Positions 1,325-60,308 of a DNA stretch of 64,000 bases are shown here, piece after piece; within the stretch, counting starts at the first letter, position 1; each line of letters begins with the position of its first letter. The translations under genes were made by a program, and so were the position numbers. The stretch spans positions 67,073 to 131,072 of the forward strand of contig CAYQPN010000002.1 of the NCBI GenBank assembly GCA_964419675.1, read 5' to 3'. This DNA comes from an uncultured Candidatus Saccharibacteria bacterium (GTDB taxonomy: Bacteria; Patescibacteriota; Saccharimonadia; Saccharimonadales; SZUA-47). The notes below the pieces were generated by a model. It was not told the DNA's origin. It saw only the letters and a program-made list of their open reading frames with translations, and did no database searches.

Positions 1325-1353
1325 TTTACTTTTCTCTGTTAATCCGGTATAGT
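1325..1353 (+). promoter_or_regulatory. Putative sigma70-type promoter of rpsT
   Basis: TTTACT (1325-1330), 17-nt spacer, TATAGT (1348-1353), about 55 nt upstream of the rpsT ATG. Confidence 0.4.
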
Positions 1354-1407
1354 TACACCGATAACAATACAAGATAAAACGTCTTTAAGGAGATTAGCAA
1401 CGATACT

Positions 1408-1761
1408 ATGCCAATTATAAAATCTGCAAAAAAGCGTGTTCGAGTAACCCAAAAGGCTACGGCGAAGAACGCAAAAGTTAAGAAAAGTCTTCGAGCCAGC
1501 CTAAAAGCCTTTCAAACTGCCGTTAGCGGTAAAAAGGATTCATCAAGTTCGCAAAATGCTGTATTCAGCTCAATTGACACCGCTGTAAAAAAAGGCATTA
1601 TGAGCAAGAATAAAGCTGCTCGAAAAAAGAGCCGTCTAAATGCACAGGCCAAGGCAACTGGCGCGACTCGTTCAACTGTTAAAAAAGCAACGCCTAATAA
1701 AACAGTCGCTAAGAAGCCAGCAACTAAAAAAGTCGCTAAAAAGAAAACCGCTAAGAAATAA
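1408..1761 (+). CDS. rpsT: 30S ribosomal protein S20 with Lys/Ala-rich C-terminal extension
   Basis: MPIIKSAKKRVRVTQKATAKNAKVKKSLR is a typical S20 N-terminus. GGAG Shine-Dalgarno upstream. Confidence 0.9.
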   Translation: MPIIKSAKKRVRVTQKATAKNAKVKKSLRASLKAFQTAVSGKKDSSSSQNAVFSSIDTAVKKGIMSKNKAARKKSRLNAQAKATGATRSTVKKATPNKTVAKKPATKKVAKKKTAKK

Positions 1762-2698
1762 CTGTTCTACTTCCCTGATATTTCAGGGCAACTTCAGAAA
1801 AGAAAGTTTCAAGTGCTGATTCTCCGTCAGCACTTGTTTTAATTAGGTAATCAATATCGGCTAAAGAGCTTACGTAAAAACGTAAATCTTGTTTTGTCAT
1901 TCTTCTGGCCAGCTGAAGCGACTTTTTTGCACCGTACGGTGACATTCCAGCGCTAGTCAATGAACTTTCAGTCTTTTGGGGGCTCAATACAGCCAAAGCC
2001 AGTTGCTGAAGTTGCCAGGTAATCATAGCTATTATTTGCTGGTGTTCTATACCTTGGGCTCTTTGATCTTGGTATAGTTCCCACGCCCTTTTAGACTGAC
2101 CATTGAACAACGCATCAAGCATCGTAAAGATTTTGCTTTGAGGAGTTGGCTCAACAAGCGCTGTTATAGCTTGTTCAGATATAACTTTTGTATAGAGAGA
2201 AAGTTTTCTTATCTCACTCTCCAAATGTTGCTGATTGGTCCCCACTAAATCTATTAGCATCCTAACCTCGGCTATAGCTATCTCAGCATTATTTTCATGA
2301 GCGGTATCCTGCACCCACTTTTCTAGTAGATAGGGAGACAGCTCTTCAAAACTTTTAAAATCGGTCTTATTTTTTAGGAAACTATAAACTTTTGACCGCT
2401 TGTCGAGCTTAGCGTCGACAAGTATCAAGTCGGTAGACTCGGCAACTTGGCCTACGATTGTCTCAATACCTTCAATTATTTTACTAGATTGAAAAAAATC
2501 TCTTACAATAACTAATTTCTTTGGCTCTAAGAACGAGATACTTCTTACTGCGTCCAGAAGATAGTCAGTTGAATCTAAATCTGAACCATCATATCTCTCA
2601 ATTGTATTAGCACCATGTGCTTTTTGGTGGATACTTTGGATTCTATTTAGCTCACCTGCAATCGCTAATAAGTTTTTTCCCGTCAACGTGACTATCAT
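1751..2698 (-). CDS. holA: DNA polymerase III delta subunit
   Basis: 315 aa with overall HolA-like layout (N-terminal MIVTLTGKN..., FLEPKKLVIVRD, later helical domains). Its 3' end overlaps rpsT convergently by 11 nt. Confidence 0.75.
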   Translation of the reverse strand: MIVTLTGKNLLAIAGELNRIQSIHQKAHGANTIERYDGSDLDSTDYLLDAVRSISFLEPKKLVIVRDFFQSSKIIEGIETIVGQVAESTDLILVDAKLDKRSKVYSFLKNKTDFKSFEELSPYLLEKWVQDTAHENNAEIAIAEVRMLIDLVGTNQQHLESEIRKLSLYTKVISEQAITALVEPTPQSKIFTMLDALFNGQSKRAWELYQDQRAQGIEHQQIIAMITWQLQQLALAVLSPQKTESSLTSAGMSPYGAKKSLQLARRMTKQDLRFYVSSLADIDYLIKTSADGESALETFFSEVALKYQGSRTVIS

Positions 2699-2803
2699 AG
2701 GCTACAATATACCACTTCTCGCACTGTTAGTCTCATGAAAGGCTACAAAGAACACGTCTAATACGCACTAATATTCGTATCGATAACAGAGATAGGGACT
2801 GAA

Positions 2804-3694
2804 CTACTTTTTTGTTCGTTTTATATTTGGTGGTCTTTGACACTTTGGGCAGAGGTGTGTACCCCTACCAGCTACACGCGTCTTTTCAATAGTAGTTTTA
2901 CAACGTGGACACGCCAGATTTTCCCTGTGAAAAACACGGGCAAAATCCATATAGCTTCCTTTTTTACCTTCGGCATTAACATAATTCCGATTCGTACTTC
3001 CACCTTTATCTAATGCAAGATTTAGAATGTAAACTACTTCCTTGTGTAGTTTTTTTAGTTGAGTTGACGAAAGGTCTTTAACAATTGAAGCAGGATGTAT
3101 ACTAGCTCCCCATAAACTTTCATCAGCATATATATTGCCTACGCCGGCTAATACTGTTTGATCTAAAAGGGCTGCTTTTATTGATGTACCCGGACGCTTT
3201 CTTACCTGTCCTAGGAAAACTCCTGATGTGAATCCCTTTTCTAATGGTTCCGGCCCAAGTTTTTTTATAAAAATATCTTCTTTTACAATTTCAGTTGGAA
3301 TCAATTTTACCCAACCAAATTTACGTTGGTCATTAAAATATAAATGCGATTTATCTGAGAATGCAATCACTACTCTAGAGCTCTTGTCTGGAAGTTTGCT
3401 AATTAACGAATCGTTAGGATGGCCTGCCCCAAAACGTTTACTACCAACAAAAACCAGTTGTCCTGTCATCTTTAAATGAATCATTAAGCTATAGCCTGAT
3501 GACAGCCCTATCAACAATACTTTTCCTCTACGACCAACAGATATAATCTTCTCATTTATTACAAATTTATCTACTGAGTTTTTGTCGTTGGGGAAAGACT
3601 TATGATTATCGTTAGTGACAGATTTTATCTTTTTCCCGACGATTAATTTAATTAACCCACGTCTTACTGTTTCAACCTCTGGCAACTCTGGCAT
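2804..3694 (-). CDS. mutM: Formamidopyrimidine-DNA glycosylase
   Basis: MPELPEVETVRRGL N-terminus and C-terminal zinc finger CPRCKTTIEKTRVAGRGTHLCPKCQ. Confidence 0.93.
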   Translation of the reverse strand: MPELPEVETVRRGLIKLIVGKKIKSVTNDNHKSFPNDKNSVDKFVINEKIISVGRRGKVLLIGLSSGYSLMIHLKMTGQLVFVGSKRFGAGHPNDSLISKLPDKSSRVVIAFSDKSHLYFNDQRKFGWVKLIPTEIVKEDIFIKKLGPEPLEKGFTSGVFLGQVRKRPGTSIKAALLDQTVLAGVGNIYADESLWGASIHPASIVKDLSSTQLKKLHKEVVYILNLALDKGGSTNRNYVNAEGKKGSYMDFARVFHRENLACPRCKTTIEKTRVAGRGTHLCPKCQRPPNIKRTKK

Positions 3695-3711
3695 AGTAAA
3701 TATATTGTATA

Positions 3712-4458
3712 TTATGCTGCCAACCTAAAAGCAACGTCTAAACATATGTCCGGTTCAAGAAGTGGTGTCATATGGTGACCTTCGTATTCATCAACTGTTC
3801 TACCGGTCGGTTTAGGGACTATCCTATCTTTGGTACCATAAATTTCAACTTCTCTTTCAAAAACTTGACCATCTCTAAGTCTATCTATATCCGCTTCAGT
3901 ATCACACTTTAGAGCAGTAATCCCTTCTGCTACAGCCAACAATGGGTTCCTTAATAAATTATTCGCCGACATTCTGAGTAGGGCAGCCTCATTATTGTAA
4001 TTACCTCTTATAGTTCTAGTATTTGCCAAAACTTCGCGAGCCATAGAAAAAGGACTAGGGCTATAACCGTTTCTACCGACTGCAGAAACAGACCCAAAAC
4101 CATAAACCGAGTAGCAAAGTCTCTCCCTGTTGTGTTCTACAAAATTCATAAAATTAACAGCATCCTGGCCGGCTTTAGAATGACCTATTAAGTGCAGTAC
4201 CGCTTTGCCGGTAATAATTACTGCCTGCTTTGCGGCATCGTGTATGTCTTTTGCTCTTTCTCTGTCGGAGTCCCAAAATGGAGCATTTCTGGGATGCCCA
4301 ACTGTCATGACATCAAACCCGTTTTGAGCCAAAGCGGGTGCTACTACCCTGCTCATTGTACCCTCGCCCAACCAGCCTGCCATAAGTAACACGATTCCAT
4401 CATGAGTCATTCTACGGGCTCTTTGTGATGGAAAAAATTCGTGTTTTCTATTTTTCAC
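3712..4458 (-). CDS. Alpha/beta-fold hydrolase (serine esterase-like)
   Basis: Nucleophile elbow LIGHSKAGQ (GxSxG variant) and typical alpha/beta hydrolase length. Confidence 0.65.
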   Translation of the reverse strand: MKNRKHEFFPSQRARRMTHDGIVLLMAGWLGEGTMSRVVAPALAQNGFDVMTVGHPRNAPFWDSDRERAKDIHDAAKQAVIITGKAVLHLIGHSKAGQDAVNFMNFVEHNRERLCYSVYGFGSVSAVGRNGYSPSPFSMAREVLANTRTIRGNYNNEAALLRMSANNLLRNPLLAVAEGITALKCDTEADIDRLRDGQVFEREVEIYGTKDRIVPKPTGRTVDEYEGHHMTPLLEPDICLDVAFRLAA

Positions 4459-4519
4459 TCTACTGCAATATAACCATAAACATTACCAGTAAGCAAACTG
4501 GGGGTGTTAAGATATTCTC

Positions 4520-4762
4520 ATGGATTCATTATCAGAGTTACTAAAGTCAAATCGCCCGGCAGAGCCACCACAGATCAAGGCTCTTAAAGAATACGTCAAA
4601 AAGTTTCATGATGAACCAGCGCAAGCTAGAGTCGGTCAGCTTGGATATTCATTAACTGTTCCAAACTCTTCACTGGCCAGTAACTTACAGATGGAAATGC
4701 CCAAAATAGTTGAATACTGTAATTTGGATAAAAAACTATTTATCCGTATCGGCCACTTCTAG
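4520..4762 (+). CDS. Small conserved hypothetical protein, tentatively DUF721/DciA-like
   Basis: 80 aa. The segment YSLTVPNSSLASNLQMEMPKIVEYCN...LFIRIG is reminiscent of the DUF721 pattern. The call is weak. Confidence 0.3.
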   Translation: MDSLSELLKSNRPAEPPQIKALKEYVKKFHDEPAQARVGQLGYSLTVPNSSLASNLQMEMPKIVEYCNLDKKLFIRIGHF

Positions 4763-5323
4763 CAATTTGTTTATTTCACTTAAGAATTGCCGAAAAGACT
4801 TATAATGAATAGCCTTCATCCCTGCTAGCTCTGCGGCTTCACAATACCTTGCTATATCATCAACAAATAAACATGACTCGGGTTCAACACCCAGTCTTTT
4901 TGCTGCTAGCTCATAAATTCTAACGTCGGGCTTAGCCATGCCAACGGCATAAGACAGAACAAAATCGTTAAACAAATTAATATCGTCTTTTTCGAATAAA
5001 CTTTCCAGCCAATTGTCAGACGCGTTAGACAAAAAACCTAGTTTATAGGAACCTTTCAAATTATCTTTTATATATGAAAGCAAGAGATTATTCCGCGGGT
5101 TAGTGTCCATCTCTGCTCTGGCTTGAGCAATATCAATATTAGCCATGCTCGCAAAATAATATAATTGCTGGTCATAACTAATCCGGCCCAAACTTGCTTG
5201 GTCGTTGATTGCATGTGCCCTTTCGCTCAACTCTTCATTTTTTGAAAAATGTTTATCTATGAATTGTTCAAGAGAACCGGCAACCAGCACACCAAAACAA
5301 TCAAAAATAATAGCCTTAATCAT
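4736..5323 (-). CDS. HAD-superfamily hydrolase
   Basis: Motif I IIFDCFGVLV (DxxG variant) and late motif LFVDD. Confidence 0.8.
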   Translation of the reverse strand: MIKAIIFDCFGVLVAGSLEQFIDKHFSKNEELSERAHAINDQASLGRISYDQQLYYFASMANIDIAQARAEMDTNPRNNLLLSYIKDNLKGSYKLGFLSNASDNWLESLFEKDDINLFNDFVLSYAVGMAKPDVRIYELAAKRLGVEPESCLFVDDIARYCEAAELAGMKAIHYKSFRQFLSEINKLLEVADTDK

Positions 5324-5363
5324 TGTTAACAGTTTACAGTAAACAGTTTAGAGTTAACAGTTA

Positions 5364-5957
5364 TTAAAGACCGGTGCCGCTAACAATTGTGTTGTAGTCA
5401 GCAACTTGGCCCTTAAAAAGAGACTTTATGACTGACATTTTTGCACCAGAAGTTCCCTGTTTTGCACTACAAGATGTGCCCCATCTTCTAAGATCTGAGT
5501 CTAGCTCAATGATGTAGCGTTTGCCTGTTGCACAAACGCCTTCATCGGCAAAATCTTCTTCAGCAGTAGTGTCTTTTATCCTTGATGTCACGCTGTTTTT
5601 ATCTAGCGCACTTAAGAATGCGTTATAAGATTCAAGGGTGTTTGGATAGCTTTTTTCTGAAATAAGAATTTGTCCGTAAGCCTTATATAACTTCATAGTT
5701 ACGGTCTTTTGTGTAACTTCAATTACATATGAACGCTGTTTATCACTAGCCACAATTGGTCCTTCGGTGATAAATCGTGCAGAAGCGGTTGTTTCAATGT
5801 TGTAAGGCTCTTCAGTTGTAGCCTGTGAAGTTGTGCTTTTACTACCGCCCTTAAAGACATTCTTAGCTATTGAGGCAATTCCCCATCCAACCAATACCAA
5901 TGCAAGCAGTGATATAAAGATGACAATTATCCAACGTAATCGTGATGCAAACTCCAT
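5364..5957 (-). CDS. Hypothetical membrane-anchored protein
   Basis: N-terminal TM helix WIIVIFISLLALVLVGWGIASI followed by a soluble domain with two Cys. No recognisable family. Confidence 0.55.
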   Translation of the reverse strand: MEFASRLRWIIVIFISLLALVLVGWGIASIAKNVFKGGSKSTTSQATTEEPYNIETTASARFITEGPIVASDKQRSYVIEVTQKTVTMKLYKAYGQILISEKSYPNTLESYNAFLSALDKNSVTSRIKDTTAEEDFADEGVCATGKRYIIELDSDLRRWGTSCSAKQGTSGAKMSVIKSLFKGQVADYNTIVSGTGL

Positions 5958-6998: not shown

Positions 6999-7871
6999 TT
7001 ATATACAGCCCCAGTTTTTTAGGTAATACTTTGCCTGATCAACTCGCCAAGGCAACTCTTTTTTTATGTATTTGTCCTGGACAATTACCGCTAGTTCATA
7101 TACCTTCGCAAAAATAAATATCTCTAAAGCTTTAGTACTCCCTGCTAGATTGCCTATCTGATCAATAATTAACTCAACAACATCAATCCCAAACCTTACT
7201 AAAGTGCGCATCTCTGAGTGAATACTGGTGTATCTTAGCTCAGCAAAATCTATTAGCCCAACCAGTTCGTTATTATCATTAAATAACATATTGTCCTCGT
7301 GCAGGTCTTTATGTGCTATTTGGTTGCCTACACAGAATCCATACGGTAATACTTCTCTAAATTCAAAGTAAAGTGACATATATTTTTCTGCGAGTTCACT
7401 CGGGTGTTTTTCGCAAAATTCAGCAATTTTTTTAAGCCAACTATCTACATAATAAAAATCGTTTGGGTCATTCTTCAAAATACTATCAATGTTTTTTCTT
7501 AACTTGGGCGAATTAATTTCTTGAATGAAAGTTGCGAGTTTGTCTGCAAGGTTCATTCTTTGTTCTTTTGTGAGTTTAGATGCTACTTGCGGGGTCAGAG
7601 TTACACCCCCTACATACGATATCTGTAAAAATCCTAATTCTTCATTCAACCCAATAACTTCCGGGATCTTCAGACTCACCTTTGAGTTAAATAAGTCATA
7701 CAAATTTTTCTCTTTTCTTAACAGATTAAAATCCGCTTCTTTTTTCGGAAATTTATAAACATAGTCGCACCCCACAATTGCAACATTGTTCATTTGACCT
7801 CTATCTATCCAATTAACCTCAACATCCCTATGTTTTCTGGCAATATACTTTTCTGCCTCCTCTATCCTCAA
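6999..7871 (-). CDS. Aminoglycoside/choline-kinase-like phosphotransferase (APH fold)
   Basis: Catalytic loop HKDLHEDNMLF and GLIDFAE (DFG-like). Its start overlaps the polA stop by 4 nt. Confidence 0.75.
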   Translation of the reverse strand: MRIEEAEKYIARKHRDVEVNWIDRGQMNNVAIVGCDYVYKFPKKEADFNLLRKEKNLYDLFNSKVSLKIPEVIGLNEELGFLQISYVGGVTLTPQVASKLTKEQRMNLADKLATFIQEINSPKLRKNIDSILKNDPNDFYYVDSWLKKIAEFCEKHPSELAEKYMSLYFEFREVLPYGFCVGNQIAHKDLHEDNMLFNDNNELVGLIDFAELRYTSIHSEMRTLVRFGIDVVELIIDQIGNLAGSTKALEIFIFAKVYELAVIVQDKYIKKELPWRVDQAKYYLKNWGCI

Positions 7872-31856: not shown

Positions 31857-32021
31857 TGGAGGAGAGGGAGAGATGAGTAGCCTAAATAATCTATGCGCCG
31901 AATGCAATTCGGGCACTAGACTATTTAGCGAGCTCTTTTTTGCTAAAGCAAAAAGTCAGGTTCGAATTCTTCCAGCTACAACAACACAGAAAGCCACGTC
32001 TATGGACACGACTTGTTGTAT
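31857..32021 (-). other. tRNA 3'-end echo module downstream of tRNA-Ser(UGA)
   Basis: The 18 nt at 31857-31874 (tggaggagagggagagat) repeat the tRNA 3' end 32022-32039 (tggcggagagggagagat) with one mismatch at the discriminator; the offset is 165. In between lie an 8-bp closing hairpin (TACAACAA...TTGTTGTA), a TTCGAA T-loop-like box (31961-31966) and two further hairpins. Confidence 0.6.
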
Positions 32022-54276: not shown

Positions 54277-54440
54277 TGGCGGAAGAGGTGGGGTTCGTCT
54301 TAACTTGCTCGCTCGAGAGCGTAAACGCATCTCGCTCAGCCAAGCATGGAAAACTCGAACATTCACAGAATGTTCTCGCCCTCTCGGGTTCGAACCTAGA
54401 TACTCGCCATCCTTCGTAGCCCTAGACAGGCGACGAAGGA
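54277..54440 (-). other. tRNA 3'-end echo module downstream of tRNA-Ser(CGA)
   Basis: The 21 nt at 54277-54297 (tggcggaagaggtggggttcg) are identical to the tRNA 3' end 54441-54461; the offset is 164. In tRNA orientation the order is as follows. First an 8-bp hairpin TCCTTCGT...ACGAAGGA directly after CCA. Then the box CTAGGTTCGAACCC (the tRNA has GTGGGTTCGAACCC). Then about 90 nt with hairpins (GAACATTC-TGT-GAATGTTC and others). Then the exact copy. Confidence 0.65.
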
Positions 54441-54784: not shown

Positions 54785-54970
54785 CGAAAGTAGCCAGGTT
54801 TTATGCCTGGCTTTTTTCGTGATGCCACCGATTTGATACGTACGACCGAAAAGAGGTCGGAGGTGAGAAATGCCAATGGCATTTTGCAAGGAAACCTTCT
54901 CTTGAAAACTTGTTTTCTAAGAAGAAGTTTCAGGTCTGCAGAATGTGGGCGAGTCGTATCGGGTGTACCA
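54785..54970 (+). other. tRNA 3'-end echo module downstream of tRNA-Arg(GCG)
   Basis: The 17 nt at 54954-54970 (tcgtatcgggtgtacca) are identical to the tRNA 3' end 54768-54784; the offset is 186. The order runs: intrinsic terminator (54792-54817), then the box GTACGACCGAAA (54840-54851; the tRNA has GTACGTTCGAAT). About 100 nt with three hairpins follow, then the exact copy, then an A-rich stretch and a terminator-like hairpin. Confidence 0.65.
54792..54817 (+). terminator. Intrinsic terminator immediately 3' of tRNA-Arg
   Basis: AGCCAGG (54792-54798), 7-nt loop, CCTGGCT (54806-54812), then T6. Confidence 0.8.
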
Positions 54971-56321: not shown

Positions 56322-56891
56322 TTAAAACCTAAACCTCCTTGATAACCTATCTATTGCATCTAGCTCACGTTGTTCGTGTGGCAAGAAATTAGCAAGCGTG
56401 TCCACAATTTTATCCTCTTCATCAGGCGGGAAGTACATGACTATTGGTGGCGTAAACCGTTTGAGTCTTACAAGCACGACGCTATCAATAGCACCATCTT
56501 CAACAACTGAAAAGGACCTAAACCCAGCGTAGGGGTAAAACTGTTGGTCAACCATAACACCGTCTGAATTGATGAGGTATCTTTTTGTAGCCGGTTGACG
56601 GCCTGCATATACAGAAATGGCTACGCAAGCCAAAAGCACCACAGCGCTGGCTAGATAATCCCGAGTAATGAAAAAAACAATAAGTACCAACAACCCAGCC
56701 CCTGCAAACAAAGCAAAATACCAATTAGATGACTTTTGGTGTTCTATAAATTCAGATGCAGACCATTCAACAGCCTGAAACTCAGGTAGTGGCACCCCTT
56801 GGGACTGTTGAAAAGTTTTTTCCGTTAAATCTTCCTGGTTTTCAGGTTGTTGATTTAACTCGCCCTCATCTTGCATACGCTTATTGTACAC
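56322..56891 (-). CDS. Hypothetical membrane protein (two TM helices plus a small C-terminal domain)
   Basis: 189 aa. The stretch WYFALFAGAGLLVLIVFFITRDYLASAVVLLACVAISVYAG forms a helical hairpin. It lies directly upstream of the 55021-56319 gene, separated by 2 nt. Confidence 0.6.
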   Translation of the reverse strand: MYNKRMQDEGELNQQPENQEDLTEKTFQQSQGVPLPEFQAVEWSASEFIEHQKSSNWYFALFAGAGLLVLIVFFITRDYLASAVVLLACVAISVYAGRQPATKRYLINSDGVMVDQQFYPYAGFRSFSVVEDGAIDSVVLVRLKRFTPPIVMYFPPDEEDKIVDTLANFLPHEQRELDAIDRLSRRFRF

Positions 56892-56930
56892 AGTAGTTTA
56901 TTTGCTGACTAGTACAAATATGGTTGCTCG

Positions 56931-56957
56931 AAAACAAAAAAGTCCCTAAACGGGACT
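56931..56957 (-). terminator. Intrinsic terminator after the Ser(GCU) echo module
   Basis: On the minus strand: AGTCCC-GTTTA-GGGACT followed by TTTTTTGTTTT. Confidence 0.7.
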
Positions 56958-56965
56958 ATTTTGTT

Positions 56966-57141
56966 TGGCGGAGAGAGAGGGATTCGCCTGACCAGCAAAA
57001 CAAATATTAGTTTTGCTAAGGTCACCCCAAATCCAGTTGGTTTGGGGCTAAAGGTTCGGGGAGTGCCACTGGCACTCCCGTTCGAATCCTCCTCTTCAAT
57101 AAATAATAAAGCCCAGACAAATATGTCTGAGCTGTATTATT
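56966..57141 (-). other. tRNA 3'-end echo module downstream of tRNA-Ser(GCU)
   Basis: The 21 nt at 56966-56986 (tggcggagagagagggattcg) are identical to the tRNA 3' end 57142-57162; the offset is 176. In tRNA orientation the order is as follows. First the terminator (57101-57132). Then the box GAGGATTCGAAC (the tRNA has GAGGGTTCGAAT). Then three strong hairpins: GGGAGTGCCA/TGGCACTCCC, CCCCAAA/TTTGGGG, and TGACC..AGCAAAAC/GTTTTGCT..GGTCA. Then the exact copy and a second terminator. Confidence 0.65.
57101..57132 (-). terminator. Intrinsic terminator immediately 3' of tRNA-Ser(GCU)
   Basis: On the minus strand: GCTCAGACA-TATT-TGTCTGGGC (one G-U pair) followed by TTTATTATTT. Confidence 0.75.
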
Positions 57142-57234
57142 TGGCGGAGAGAGAGGGATTCGAACCCTCGCGGGAGATTTCTCCCCCCTAATGATTTAGC
57201 AAACCATCCCCTTGAGCCACTTGGGTACCTCTCC
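57142..57234 (-). tRNA. tRNA-Ser (anticodon GCU), CCA encoded
   Basis: Hand fold: acceptor GGAGAGG/TCTCTCC, D stem CCC/GGG, anticodon stem ATGGT/ATCAT with loop TTGCTAA, 21-nt variable arm, T arm GAGGG-TTCGAAT-CCCTC, G-CCA. Confidence 0.92.
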
Positions 57235-57402
57235 TCGTCACAAGGTACGGCTGATCTCTCAAAATTAATTCTATGAGAATTTATTTATTAAAAATCGCCT
57301 TCTTGTTCCTCTCAATTCTACATAAGAATGTAGAATTGGGCTAAACACAGAAACCTTTTGCGACTTATATCGTATCGTATCTGTTATAAAAAGAGAAGTG
57401 CT

Positions 57403-58926: not shown

Positions 58927-59325
58927 CTAAGCAGTTGCTTTATCAAGTACATATCGCACAATAACTTGTGCTAACGCAACGATTATTAAACCAACTACTG
59001 CGTAGAGTATCGTATTCTTTGCACCGGTTACGTTACCAGAATCGCCACCCGATGTAATATACTTCAAACCACCAATAATTATCATTATTACGGATATAAT
59101 ACCCACTGCAAGTGAAAATATGTTAATTACGTTTGTAATTAGCGAATTAACTTTAGTGTCGGCATCACCAGTTTCATCACAAGATGAATCTGTCGTGCTT
59201 AAACAGGTTCCTTTTTGCAATCCTTCGGTGATTGAAGCCGCTGATACCATTGAAGGTACTGCCATTGGCAACAATAGTCCTAATGAAGCTGCTAGGCTGA
59301 ACATAATTCTCTTTACTCGTGTCAT
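58927..59325 (-). CDS. VirB2/TrbC-like two-helix pilin-type protein (paralog 6, most promoter-distal)
   Basis: Signal peptide ...MAVPSMVSAAS, Cys pair (GTCLSTTDSSCDE), helix 1, loop GGLKYITSGGDSGNVTGAKNTILYAVVG, helix 2. Confidence 0.7.
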   Translation of the reverse strand: MTRVKRIMFSLAASLGLLLPMAVPSMVSAASITEGLQKGTCLSTTDSSCDETGDADTKVNSLITNVINIFSLAVGIISVIMIIIGGLKYITSGGDSGNVTGAKNTILYAVVGLIIVALAQVIVRYVLDKATA

Positions 59326-59400
59326 AGTTTGTTTACTTCCTTTTTTACTTATTTCTCTTAGATTAATTTATAGCACAATCACTATACTCTCACAACTTTT

Positions 59401-59874
59401 TTAGCAAGGACCGCCACCTGCATTGCGACAATCATTCTCGAATTGGGTAGCGTCTTGTCGTTGTGACTGGTTTAGCCCGTCATCTGCCTTATTTAGCACG
59501 AATCTGACCATTATTTGCGATAAAGCTACGATCATTAAACCTACCAGCGCGTACAGTACAGTATTTTTAGCAGAAGAAACATTTGAAGCATCACCTTGAG
59601 ACGTAATGAATTTTACACCCCCTACTATGATCACTATAACCGTGATGACACCAGCAACTATAGATAGCAGGCCCAGGGCGGTCGTCAAAATTCCATTTAA
59701 GCTACCGCTTGAGTCTCCACTATTACAGTTAGTGTTGCTATCGGTAACAGCCACACCCTCACAGGCAGCATTTTTGGCAGCATCAAATTGAGCAAAAGCG
59801 CCAGACCCTAATAGCGTTGTTGAAAGTCCCAGCGTTGATAGTGATATAGCGAGTGTTAATAATACTTTTTTCAT
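59401..59874 (-). CDS. VirB2/TrbC-like two-helix pilin-type protein (paralog 5)
   Basis: Signal peptide ...GSGAFAQ, Cys pair (AACEG...NCNSGD), loop GGVKFITSQGDASNVSSAKNTVLYALVG, and an extra C-terminal tail with a second Cys pair (NDCRNAGGGPC). Confidence 0.7.
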   Translation of the reverse strand: MKKVLLTLAISLSTLGLSTTLLGSGAFAQFDAAKNAACEGVAVTDSNTNCNSGDSSGSLNGILTTALGLLSIVAGVITVIVIIVGGVKFITSQGDASNVSSAKNTVLYALVGLMIVALSQIMVRFVLNKADDGLNQSQRQDATQFENDCRNAGGGPC

Positions 59875-59894
59875 CCAAATACCTCTTTTTCTGT

Positions 59895-60308
59895 TTAAAA
59901 TCGTCCTAATACAAACCTTACCGTAAGTTGTGAGGCTACGGCTATAATTATACCAACTGACGCATAAATTATTTGCATCCTGGATGTTGATATCTTATGG
60001 GAATCACCCCTGGAAAGTGTCATTCTTATCCCGGCAATCATAAATACAGCCACTGCGATAATACCCACCACAAATGACAATGCATTGAGAGCCTTGGTCA
60101 AGATCCCATCTTTCCCGTAGATCGGGTTGGTGGTTTTTGCGGTTTCAATATCTCTACAAATCGCCGGCACTTCGCCGTTGCCGAAGTCCCCGCTACAAAC
60201 ATCGTTAGATATGTCTACCTGAGCTCCGGCAGGCAAGACGGACAATGCAGGTACGAATAAGCTTAGAGCCAGACTCGCTGTTAAGACAAACCTTTTTAAT
60301 ATTTTCAT
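59895..60308 (-). CDS. VirB2/TrbC-like two-helix pilin-type protein (paralog 4)
   Basis: Signal peptide ...LPAGAQV, Cys pair (DVCSGDFGNGEVPAICRD), loop AGIRMTLSRGDSHKISTSRMQIIYASVG. Confidence 0.7.
   Translation of the reverse strand: MKILKRFVLTASLALSLFVPALSVLPAGAQVDISNDVCSGDFGNGEVPAICRDIETAKTTNPIYGKDGILTKALNALSFVVGIIAVAVFMIAGIRMTLSRGDSHKISTSRMQIIYASVGIIIAVASQLTVRFVLGRF

Follow-up and report, generated by a model that had tools for sequence, protein, structure and literature searches.

The tRNA-linked repeats (TLRs) of Escherichia coli, among them a 178-bp repeat at tyrT/tyrV, were reportedly first described in 1978 by Egan and Landy and are said to have been treated again by Rudd in 1999. 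To our knowledge, work on TLRs has so far been confined to this one species and its 22 copies. These repeats sit in tRNA or rRNA operons, with 22 copies at 10 loci (1–5 per locus) in strain K-12, and their hallmark is that the last 18–19 bp match exactly the 3' end of the gene immediately upstream; as of 2021, those linked to tRNA genes had no known function or origin (PMC8144298). In the rRNA (rrn) operons, the TLRs RrA, RrB and RrF lie between a first terminator, T1, and a second, T2, and are produced by read-through of T1 followed by processing. All three end at an 18-bp copy of the 3' end of 5S rRNA, RrB 3 nt past the repeat, and for RrB the read-through transcription, the processing and the binding of Hfq and CsrA have been demonstrated experimentally (PMC8144298). 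Here we analyse a 64,000-nt window (contig CAYQPN010000002.1, positions 67,073–131,072; all coordinates below count from the first base of the window) from an uncultured Candidatus Saccharibacteria bacterium, a member of the Candidate Phyla Radiation (CPR). The interval 56931–57141, directly behind a tRNA-Ser(GCU) gene, is one TLR unit. The kind of element is known but unexplained; what is new here is the phylum, the core families and a far wider range of tRNAs.

The tRNA-Ser(GCU) gene, with its CCA encoded, occupies 57142–57234 on the minus strand (ARAGORN; Rfam tRNA, 52.2 bits), and the unit begins on the same strand at the first base past the CCA. It opens with a terminator, T1 (57101–57141, minus; terminator scan and inverted repeats I1 and I5), which consists of an A-tract, a GC hairpin with a 10-bp stem (57133–57124 / 57119–57110) and an interrupted, T-rich U-tract, the hairpin being followed by TTATTATTTATT. 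Then comes GAAGAGGAGGATTCGAAC (57080–57097, minus), an imperfect inverted copy of tRNA positions ~53–72 that is evident in inverted repeats I5 and I9 (85–88% complementary), in the minimum free energy (MFE) fold, in the alignment consensus and in the pair counts for helix 1, and that forms the 5' strand of a closing stem, P1. We call this 5' inverted copy the 'anti-echo' and the 3' copy with which it pairs the 'echo'. Three hairpins lie between the two, all read on the minus strand. P2 (57059–57079; inverted repeat I12) is a perfect 10+10 hairpin, GGGAGTGCCA-G-TGGCACTCCC. A conserved linker, CGAACCTTTA (57058–57049), leads into P3 (57024–57048; MFE fold and alignment consensus), a hairpin GCCCCAAACC..GGATTTGGGGT that includes CCCCAAA..TTTGGGG at 57047–57025, and P4 (56990–57023; inverted repeat I7 and MFE fold) pairs GACC..AGCAAAAC with GTTTTGCT..GGTC. 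After P4 follow AGG and the 21-nt echo, CGAATCCCTCTCTCTCCGCCA (56966–56986, minus; repeat search), which is the 3' strand of P1 and an exact copy of tRNA positions 56–76 including the CCA, its source being the last 21 nt of the tRNA (57162–57142). On the plus strand the 21-mer TGGCGGAGAGAGAGGGATTCG occurs exactly twice, at 56966–56986 and 57142–57162, and none of 100 dinucleotide shuffles produced a match. The second terminator, T2 (56931–56965, minus; terminator scan), closes the unit with AACAAAAT, the hairpin AGTCCC-GTTTA-GGGACT (stem 56957–56952 / 56946–56941) and then TTTTTTGTTTT.

A previous annotation of this locus from its letters alone (hereafter the sequence-only reading) had picked out the exact 21-nt repeat, a terminator 9 nt after the tRNA CCA, a second terminator closing the module, the perfect palindrome and the CCCCAAA..TTTGGGG hairpin, and all of these stand. 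A third hairpin, TGACC..GGTCA, was said to end directly at the echo; it is present (57024–56989) but stops 2 nt short of it. The segment GAGGATTCGAAC at 57091–57080 had been set beside the start of the tRNA T-arm; it is no copy of the T-arm but the end of the inverted copy of the tRNA 3' end, and its pairing with the echo closes the structure. That reading missed the inverted copy, the TLR class, the strand symmetry and the turnover like that of repeat DNA. Both T1 and T2 are terminator-like in either direction, and the terminator scan of the focal 1.2 kb returned 6 sites against 1.0 expected. The two direct repeats (tRNA tail and echo) are 155 nt apart, giving a repeat spacing of 176 bp. Between them the only open reading frame (ORF) is one of 76 aa on the plus strand (56961–57191), overlapping the tRNA in antisense, and neither a recombinase gene nor cargo, as an element bounded by attL and attR would carry, is found there.

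The unit can be compared directly with its E. coli counterparts. It lies downstream of a tRNA gene in the same orientation, is identical to the tRNA 3' end over 21/21 positions, and is a single unit between T1 and T2. As a positive control, the K-12 tyrT/tyrV sequence yielded four units, each ending in the last 19 nt of tRNA-Tyr and each scoring 133–137 bits against the Rfam RtT family (RF00391). The RtT consensus closes with the pairing GgGaaGGAU:AUCCuuCcC, which is an anti-echo:echo stem, and continues with GAGAAC and a copy of GGTTCGA. The Saccharibacteria and tyrT units thus share their place directly behind a tRNA in the same orientation, an end that exactly copies the last 18–21 nt of that tRNA including the CCA, an imperfect inverted 5' copy that pairs with the 3' copy (GGGGAAGGATGAGAAC in E. 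coli, GAAGAGGAGGATTCGAAC in the focal unit), several interior hairpins, and a tendency to form tandem arrays. They differ in sequence, as the Saccharibacteria units match RF00391 neither directly nor by its covariance model: the window yielded no hit at gathering threshold (45 bits) or at E <=10, nor did 19 related loci or, at E <=5, six loci with another core (type B, below). No other Rfam family matched the module at gathering threshold or at permissive E-values. The Saccharibacteria units also open with a strong T1 palindrome that the tyrT units do not have, fall into at least five unrelated core types, and follow tRNAs for no fewer than 14 amino acids, where E. coli K-12 has 10 loci. With RrA, RrB and RrF (rrnA, rrnB and rrnD) the focal unit shares the layout between two terminators, the lack of an own promoter, and a copy of the 3' end of the upstream RNA some distance downstream (18 bp at ~150 bp in the rrn operons; 176 bp here). 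It differs from them in that their upstream gene is 5S rRNA and not a tRNA, and in that the read-through, processing and protein binding seen by experiment are those of RrB.

The interval 56966–57100 (135 nt) folds with an MFE of -62.2 kcal/mol, z = -6.7 against shuffles, into a four-way junction closed by GAAGAGGAGGATTCG pairing with the echo, i.e. by the anti-echo:echo stem P1. The reverse strand folds equally well (-65.0 kcal/mol). A covariance model built from five members with the focal core (type C) recovered eight solid members, located behind Ser-GCU, Ser-CGA and Ser-TGA tRNAs. In the alignment of these eight units 19/34 pairs show changes on both sides, and 89% of cells are paired compared with at most 57% when the partners are slid; none of 500 shuffles reached the observed pairing values. 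Both-sided changes affect 6/9 pairs of P2 and 9/11 pairs of P4 (helices 4 and 5), and 3/5 pairs of P3 covary, the basal G.U of P3 being kept in 6/8 units. The junction sequences GAAC, CCTTWGCCCC and GGYCGAATCC are kept, whereas whole stems are exchanged. Cells with GT/TG number 15 and those with AC/CA 6.

A neighbouring gene identifies the source as a metagenome-assembled Saccharibacteria genome (MAG). To place the unit among relatives, we compared the syntenic region of 80 other Saccharibacteria species, plus three further contigs, with ~230 tRNAs in all (loci are cited by number, e.g. L072). An exact 18/18 copy of the tRNA's own 3' end lies 106–200 nt downstream of 37 of these ~230 tRNAs, and no exact copy lies upstream. 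Counting echoes of at least 16/18 identity, with other tRNAs excluded, there are 46 units, 44 of them 106–201 nt in size. An intact unit is present at only ~20% of orthologous tRNAs. The echo sequence tracks each species' own tRNA: exact echoes start in the T-loop, with a length of 18 nt (tRNA positions 59–76) in 23 cases and 21 nt in 7, and the identity ends exactly at the CCA, with 0 nt beyond, in 28/46. Orthologous and sister units do not lack the tRNA-matched 3' end, so the assignment to the TLR class stands in this respect. A metagenome scan with one core hairpin returned 120 loci, two of which are probably from the same genome as the L077 locus. Sixty-three of the matches lie within 500 nt downstream of a same-strand tRNA, with 14 amino acids represented (Met, Glu, Asn, Pro, Ser, Lys, Arg, Asp, Thr, Gly, Trp, Leu, Ala and Val), and among these 63 the echo of the own tail is exact in 29 and 17/18 in 11. 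Cores are nearly always found at most 450 nt downstream of a same-strand tRNA, and their orientation relative to the tRNA is invariant.

In the focal unit the order of parts is tRNA-CCA, T1 palindrome, anti-echo, three covarying hairpins, echo and T2. Among 78 modules examined, a T1 hairpin is present in 78/78 and a T2 hairpin in 73/78. The first bases behind T1 belong to the anti-echo and are often TGG(T/C), complementary to the CCA end; from there it retraces the 3' strand of the acceptor and then the T-arm, as far as position ~53 (Ser) or ~45 (Arg). Because it runs back over acceptor and T-arm in this way, tRNA tail, T1 and anti-echo make up one long interrupted palindrome, with T1 at its centre. 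After the P2 turn, many units contain a direct copy of GGTTCG, followed by the core hairpins and the echo. The whole unit can thus be read as the 3' part of the tRNA copied in fold-back form, its direct arm bearing additional hairpins within the T-loop. The anti-echo is tRNA-specific yet degenerate (mean alignment score 22 against the own tRNA and 15 against other tRNAs in the 78 modules), unlike the echo, which is usually exact. P1 commonly pairs the CCA itself, so the end of the unit is unlike a tRNA acceptor end, and we rejected the idea of a tRNA-like minihelix with a free NCCA on this ground. Sorting by eye and by BLAST gave at least five core types. Mini-hairpins with GNA-type loops (GCGAAGC, GCGTAGC, GCGAAAGC) recur at hairpin tips both in Saccharibacteria units and in E. 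coli RtT, for example at the tips of P2 in L106, L129, L206 and L175. The type B hairpin has a CUUG-type loop and a conserved asymmetric internal loop (GC-ACA / GA-GC).

The units turn over in the manner of repeat DNA. Orthologous tRNA-Ser(GCU) genes are followed by a core of type A, B, C, D or another, or by none, and one core type can be found behind different tRNAs; in L040 the Ser and Arg cores are ~92% identical, with a compensatory change. Tandem arrays are common, including arrays of mixed types, and at least two units are present in each of L008, L013, L015, L017, L032, L039 and L072. Decayed units also occur. In L032 two tRNA loci share a block of ~250 nt, from T1 through the module and echo to T2, at ~96% identity; in these near-identical blocks each echo nevertheless keeps the variant base of the local tRNA. 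Near-identical strains part exactly after the echo CCA or the tRNA CCA, with unrelated flanks beyond; the cargo past the breakpoint in L106 contains no recombinase. The units do not have the properties of a miniature inverted-repeat transposable element (MITE) or a dispersed palindromic repeat, as their inverted ends are imperfect and tRNA-specific, no short target-site duplication was seen, and the copies are tied to tRNAs.

In L195 and L124 a tRNA or pseudo-tRNA has the core within its T-loop. These fusions are best explained by a deletion between the tRNA T-arm and the internal GGTTCG copy of the module. At L195 (5450–5620, minus) a tRNA-Ser(CGA) holds a 64-nt TLR core in its T-loop (GGTTCG / core / ATCCC..CCA); ARAGORN calls neither this gene nor an intact copy in the locus, so that it is either dead or a hidden interrupted tRNA. 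At L124 (4750–4905, minus) a pseudo-tRNA-Thr with a TLR core in the T-loop lies just upstream of an intact tRNA-Thr(CGT), whose own unit has an internal duplication of ~80 nt. Introns published for Patescibacteria tRNAs are group I introns at position 35/36 (PMC13011429). A T-loop intron as the general case was rejected, as standard units have an intact tRNA upstream and a deletion accounts for L195 and L124. Two further forms of copying were seen. At L001 (6560–6620) and L108 (~1940–2010) partial copies of tRNA 5' parts (Arg and Ser, respectively) lie upstream of, or are fused to, TLR-like sequence, and echoes are therefore not confined to tRNA 3' ends. At L010 (~4400–4640) and L020 (7583–7800) the direct repeat runs 42–43 nt past the CCA, so that T2 is there an exact copy of T1; this resembles a recent tandem duplication of tail and terminator.

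Two modes of expression had been offered for the module by the sequence-only reading, its own short transcription unit or an element dependent on read-through. Read-through has a precedent in RrA, RrB and RrF, while an own unit found no support: neither between T1 and the echo nor anywhere in 56966–57141 is there a sigma-70-like promoter on either strand, although CPR promoters may differ from the consensus. The cores were also compared for signatures of RNA on one strand, with a null result. Across 78 cores, fold energies do not differ between the strands, interior G.U pairs number 144 on one strand and 144 on the other, and the sense strand is the more stable in 39/78. T1 hairpins are on average stronger than T2 hairpins, and the notion of T1 as a leaky terminator is accordingly unsupported, although the measure folded the U-tract into the stem and is for that reason a poor test of leakiness.

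Taken with the anatomy, the tRNA-matched echo, the covariation, the strand symmetry and the match to TLR anatomy, the turnover described above leads us to favour, as the probable reading, that the unit is a repeat cassette at the level of DNA, transcribed only by read-through. We infer that it spreads by recombination between tail repeats and by fold-back copying at T1, and that any RNA is processed at the echo. The cassette would live at the 3' ends of tRNA genes primarily as repeat DNA. Its direct repeat of tail and echo, its fold-back copy centred on T1 and a T-loop sequence that is universal would let it be gained, lost, duplicated in tandem or exchanged between tRNAs with ease, recombination and template switching being the likely routes; this would account for the different cores, arrays, decayed copies or absences at the same tRNA of relatives. 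Because it lies behind T1 and has no detected promoter, RNA would arise solely by read-through. Such an RNA would terminate at T2 and would be cleaved past the echo CCA by the same enzymes that release the tRNA from T1, in line with a proposal made for RrB.

Several observations weigh against this reading. No clean pair of filled and empty sites was recovered between near-identical strains, the units have neither a recombinase nor a transposase linked to them, and no reverse transcriptase came to light, the ORFs not having been systematically screened for one. The only island found at such a site, in L072, shares just ~9 nt of identity with it and has no relatives in the other loci. Core motifs are recognisable across genomes whose neighbouring proteins are only ~50–58% identical, which implies selection or recent transfer. 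The conserved G.U at the base of P3 and the CUUG-type loops hint at folding on the tRNA-sense strand, and the anti-echo drifts whereas the echo remains exact, which means that some force holds the echo to the tRNA sequence. E. coli TLRs are known to give rise to RNAs (PMC8144298). Separately, we considered and set aside a retroelement in which the echo would be a primer-binding site (the 18-nt echo starts just 3' of A58), as reverse transcriptase was not seen near the units, with the same limit on the ORF screen, and as the study of Patescibacteria tRNA introns cited above reports no group II introns in that group (PMC13011429).

In a tentative and, in our view, rather unlikely alternative, the unit is a small RNA of benefit to the host, co-transcribed with the tRNA by read-through of T1 and folded as a four-way junction, and its DNA turnover is secondary. 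The echo would then recruit the machinery that processes tRNA 3' ends, or vie with the 3' strand of the tRNA for pairing to the anti-echo. The strong covariation with conserved junction nucleotides, the retained P3 G.U, the 15 to 6 ratio of GT/TG to AC/CA cells and the exact echo all agree with this, as does the better folding of Arg units on the tRNA strand. RrA, RrB, RrF and rtT are real RNAs made from E. coli TLRs (PMC8144298), and two further papers describe E. coli terminators directly after a tRNA CCA that are removed by RNase E, RNase P or PNPase (PMC5291269, PMC2811032). A beneficial RNA would, however, hardly be so patchy, with different core types behind the same tRNA across species and decayed copies among them; the strands show no bias overall, the T1 hairpin is strong, the end of the unit is not tRNA-like where P1 pairs the CCA, and the tRNA-linked TLRs of E. 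coli are themselves without known function. It is highly improbable that the unit is an independent small gene driven by its own promoter somewhere from T1 to the echo, or one encoded on the other strand with its 5' end antisense to the tRNA tail. Such a gene would suit the equal folding of both strands and the two-way terminators, and runs against the missing promoter-like site noted above (with its proviso on CPR consensus), the lack of an Rfam match and the invariant orientation relative to the tRNA.

Direct repeats of a tRNA 3' segment, from the T-loop to the end, are also found in the att duplications of integrative elements at tRNA genes and in their non-autonomous derivatives, the cis-mobilisable elements (CIMEs), and identity over just this stretch is typical of integrase att sites. 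The unit could on this basis be the scar of an integrated prophage or integrative conjugative element (ICE), with tail and echo as attL and attR and 155 nt left after deletion of the cargo. As at tRNA genes with att duplications, different units can stack at one tRNA, and L072 contains a real 4.2-kb island (1329–5601) directly after tRNA-Arg(GCG), next to units. It encodes a large serine recombinase (1307–2851, minus), a rolling-circle Rep of the ORF2/G2P family (3031–3843, minus) and a HopA1-like protein (4572–5486, plus), and behind it lie a short degenerate copy of the tRNA tail and a tandem pair of exact TLR units (period 182 nt). The island lies beside these units and not around them, its identity to the site is only ~9 nt, and no homologue of its genes is present in any other locus or in the window. 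The narrow size range (106–201 nt in 44/46) with a complete repeated architecture and no integrase or cargo, the few covarying, folded core families in place of random remnants, and a tRNA-specific anti-echo that would have no role in an att scar all speak against such an origin. Scans of viral contigs with two core motifs gave 0 matches and 21 chance matches, respectively, i.e. nothing real, and therefore identify no phage source. We consider a scar of this kind improbable.

Integron attC sites, the attP of CTX-phi, repetitive extragenic palindromic sequences (REP) and bacterial interspersed mosaic elements (BIME), and the Neisseria intergenic mosaic elements (NIME) with their dRS3 repeats resemble the units in combining conserved structure with variable sequence, and are taken here as a lead only. 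Like attC and REP-type elements, the units have strand-symmetric hairpins, and their closing stem recreates a duplex copy of the target; unlike them, they have no linked recombinase and are strictly tied to tRNA 3' ends. A bolder extension of the repeat-cassette reading, which we hold to be unlikely though worth stating, is that TLRs are widespread, self-renewing fold-back cassettes templated on the 3' end of the host tRNA, which home via homology arms or as a folded recombination site. A snap-back copy of the tRNA 3' end would be made at the terminator palindrome and a structured core inserted in the T-loop of its direct arm. Homology arms for homing into the same tRNA in other cells could then be supplied by the tRNA body together with the exact 18-nt echo (positions 59–76), the hosts being naturally competent as well as genome-reduced; alternatively, the closing stem might act as a folded single-strand recombination site. 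If this were true, TLRs would be no enterobacterial oddity.

These tiny genomes hold many and varied TLRs, with hundreds of independent units spread over most kinds of tRNA. With several core families that show covariation, turnover, arrays and decay, both the origin of TLRs (fold-back copying and recombination at tRNA tails) and their function (read-through RNA or selfish DNA) become answerable by comparative genomics. Saccharibacteria are now cultivable and genetically tractable. For annotation, echoes look like att sites or partial tRNAs, and where a core has fused into the T-loop, gene finders can miss the tRNA, as in L195.

Beyond the focal unit, all four tRNA loci of the window (Ser-GGA/Ser-TGA, Ser-CGA, Arg-GCG and Ser-GCU) carry a unit, in agreement with the four modules counted by the sequence-only reading. 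A type A core lies behind tRNA-Ser(TGA) (31857–32021, minus), with a 17/18 echo at 31874–31857; a type E core behind tRNA-Ser(CGA) (54277–54440, minus) ends in an exact 21-nt echo at 54297–54277; and a type D core behind tRNA-Arg(GCG) (54785–54970, plus) has a 17/18 echo at 54953–54970. There are no further copies of the unit elsewhere in the 64 kb. ARAGORN and Rfam call only five real tRNAs in the window, and the module does not qualify as a tRNA-like or transfer-messenger RNA (tmRNA) gene, its permuted-tmRNA match scoring 11.5 bits (E = 3.6). The block at 56890–57402, comprising tRNA-Ser(GCU), a promoter-like region upstream of it and the unit, is inverted relative to the flanking genes, which encode a ComF-like phosphoribosyltransferase and a 189-aa membrane protein. 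In three relatives (L001 4433–5000, L002 1233–1508 and L003 4473–5000) it has the opposite orientation, and homology of the region upstream of the tRNA can be recognised in both orientations. In one metagenome contig that also has a TLR unit, L212, a c-di-GMP-II-GAG riboswitch match at 7129–7209 scores 40.7 bits against a gathering threshold of 40. Finally, the window contains at 58927–60308 (minus) and beyond a set of small paralogues of 132, 157 and 137 aa, each with a signal peptide and two membrane helices; their counterparts in L001 and L003 match the T4SS_pilin/TrbC Pfam families and adjoin a TrbL-like gene.

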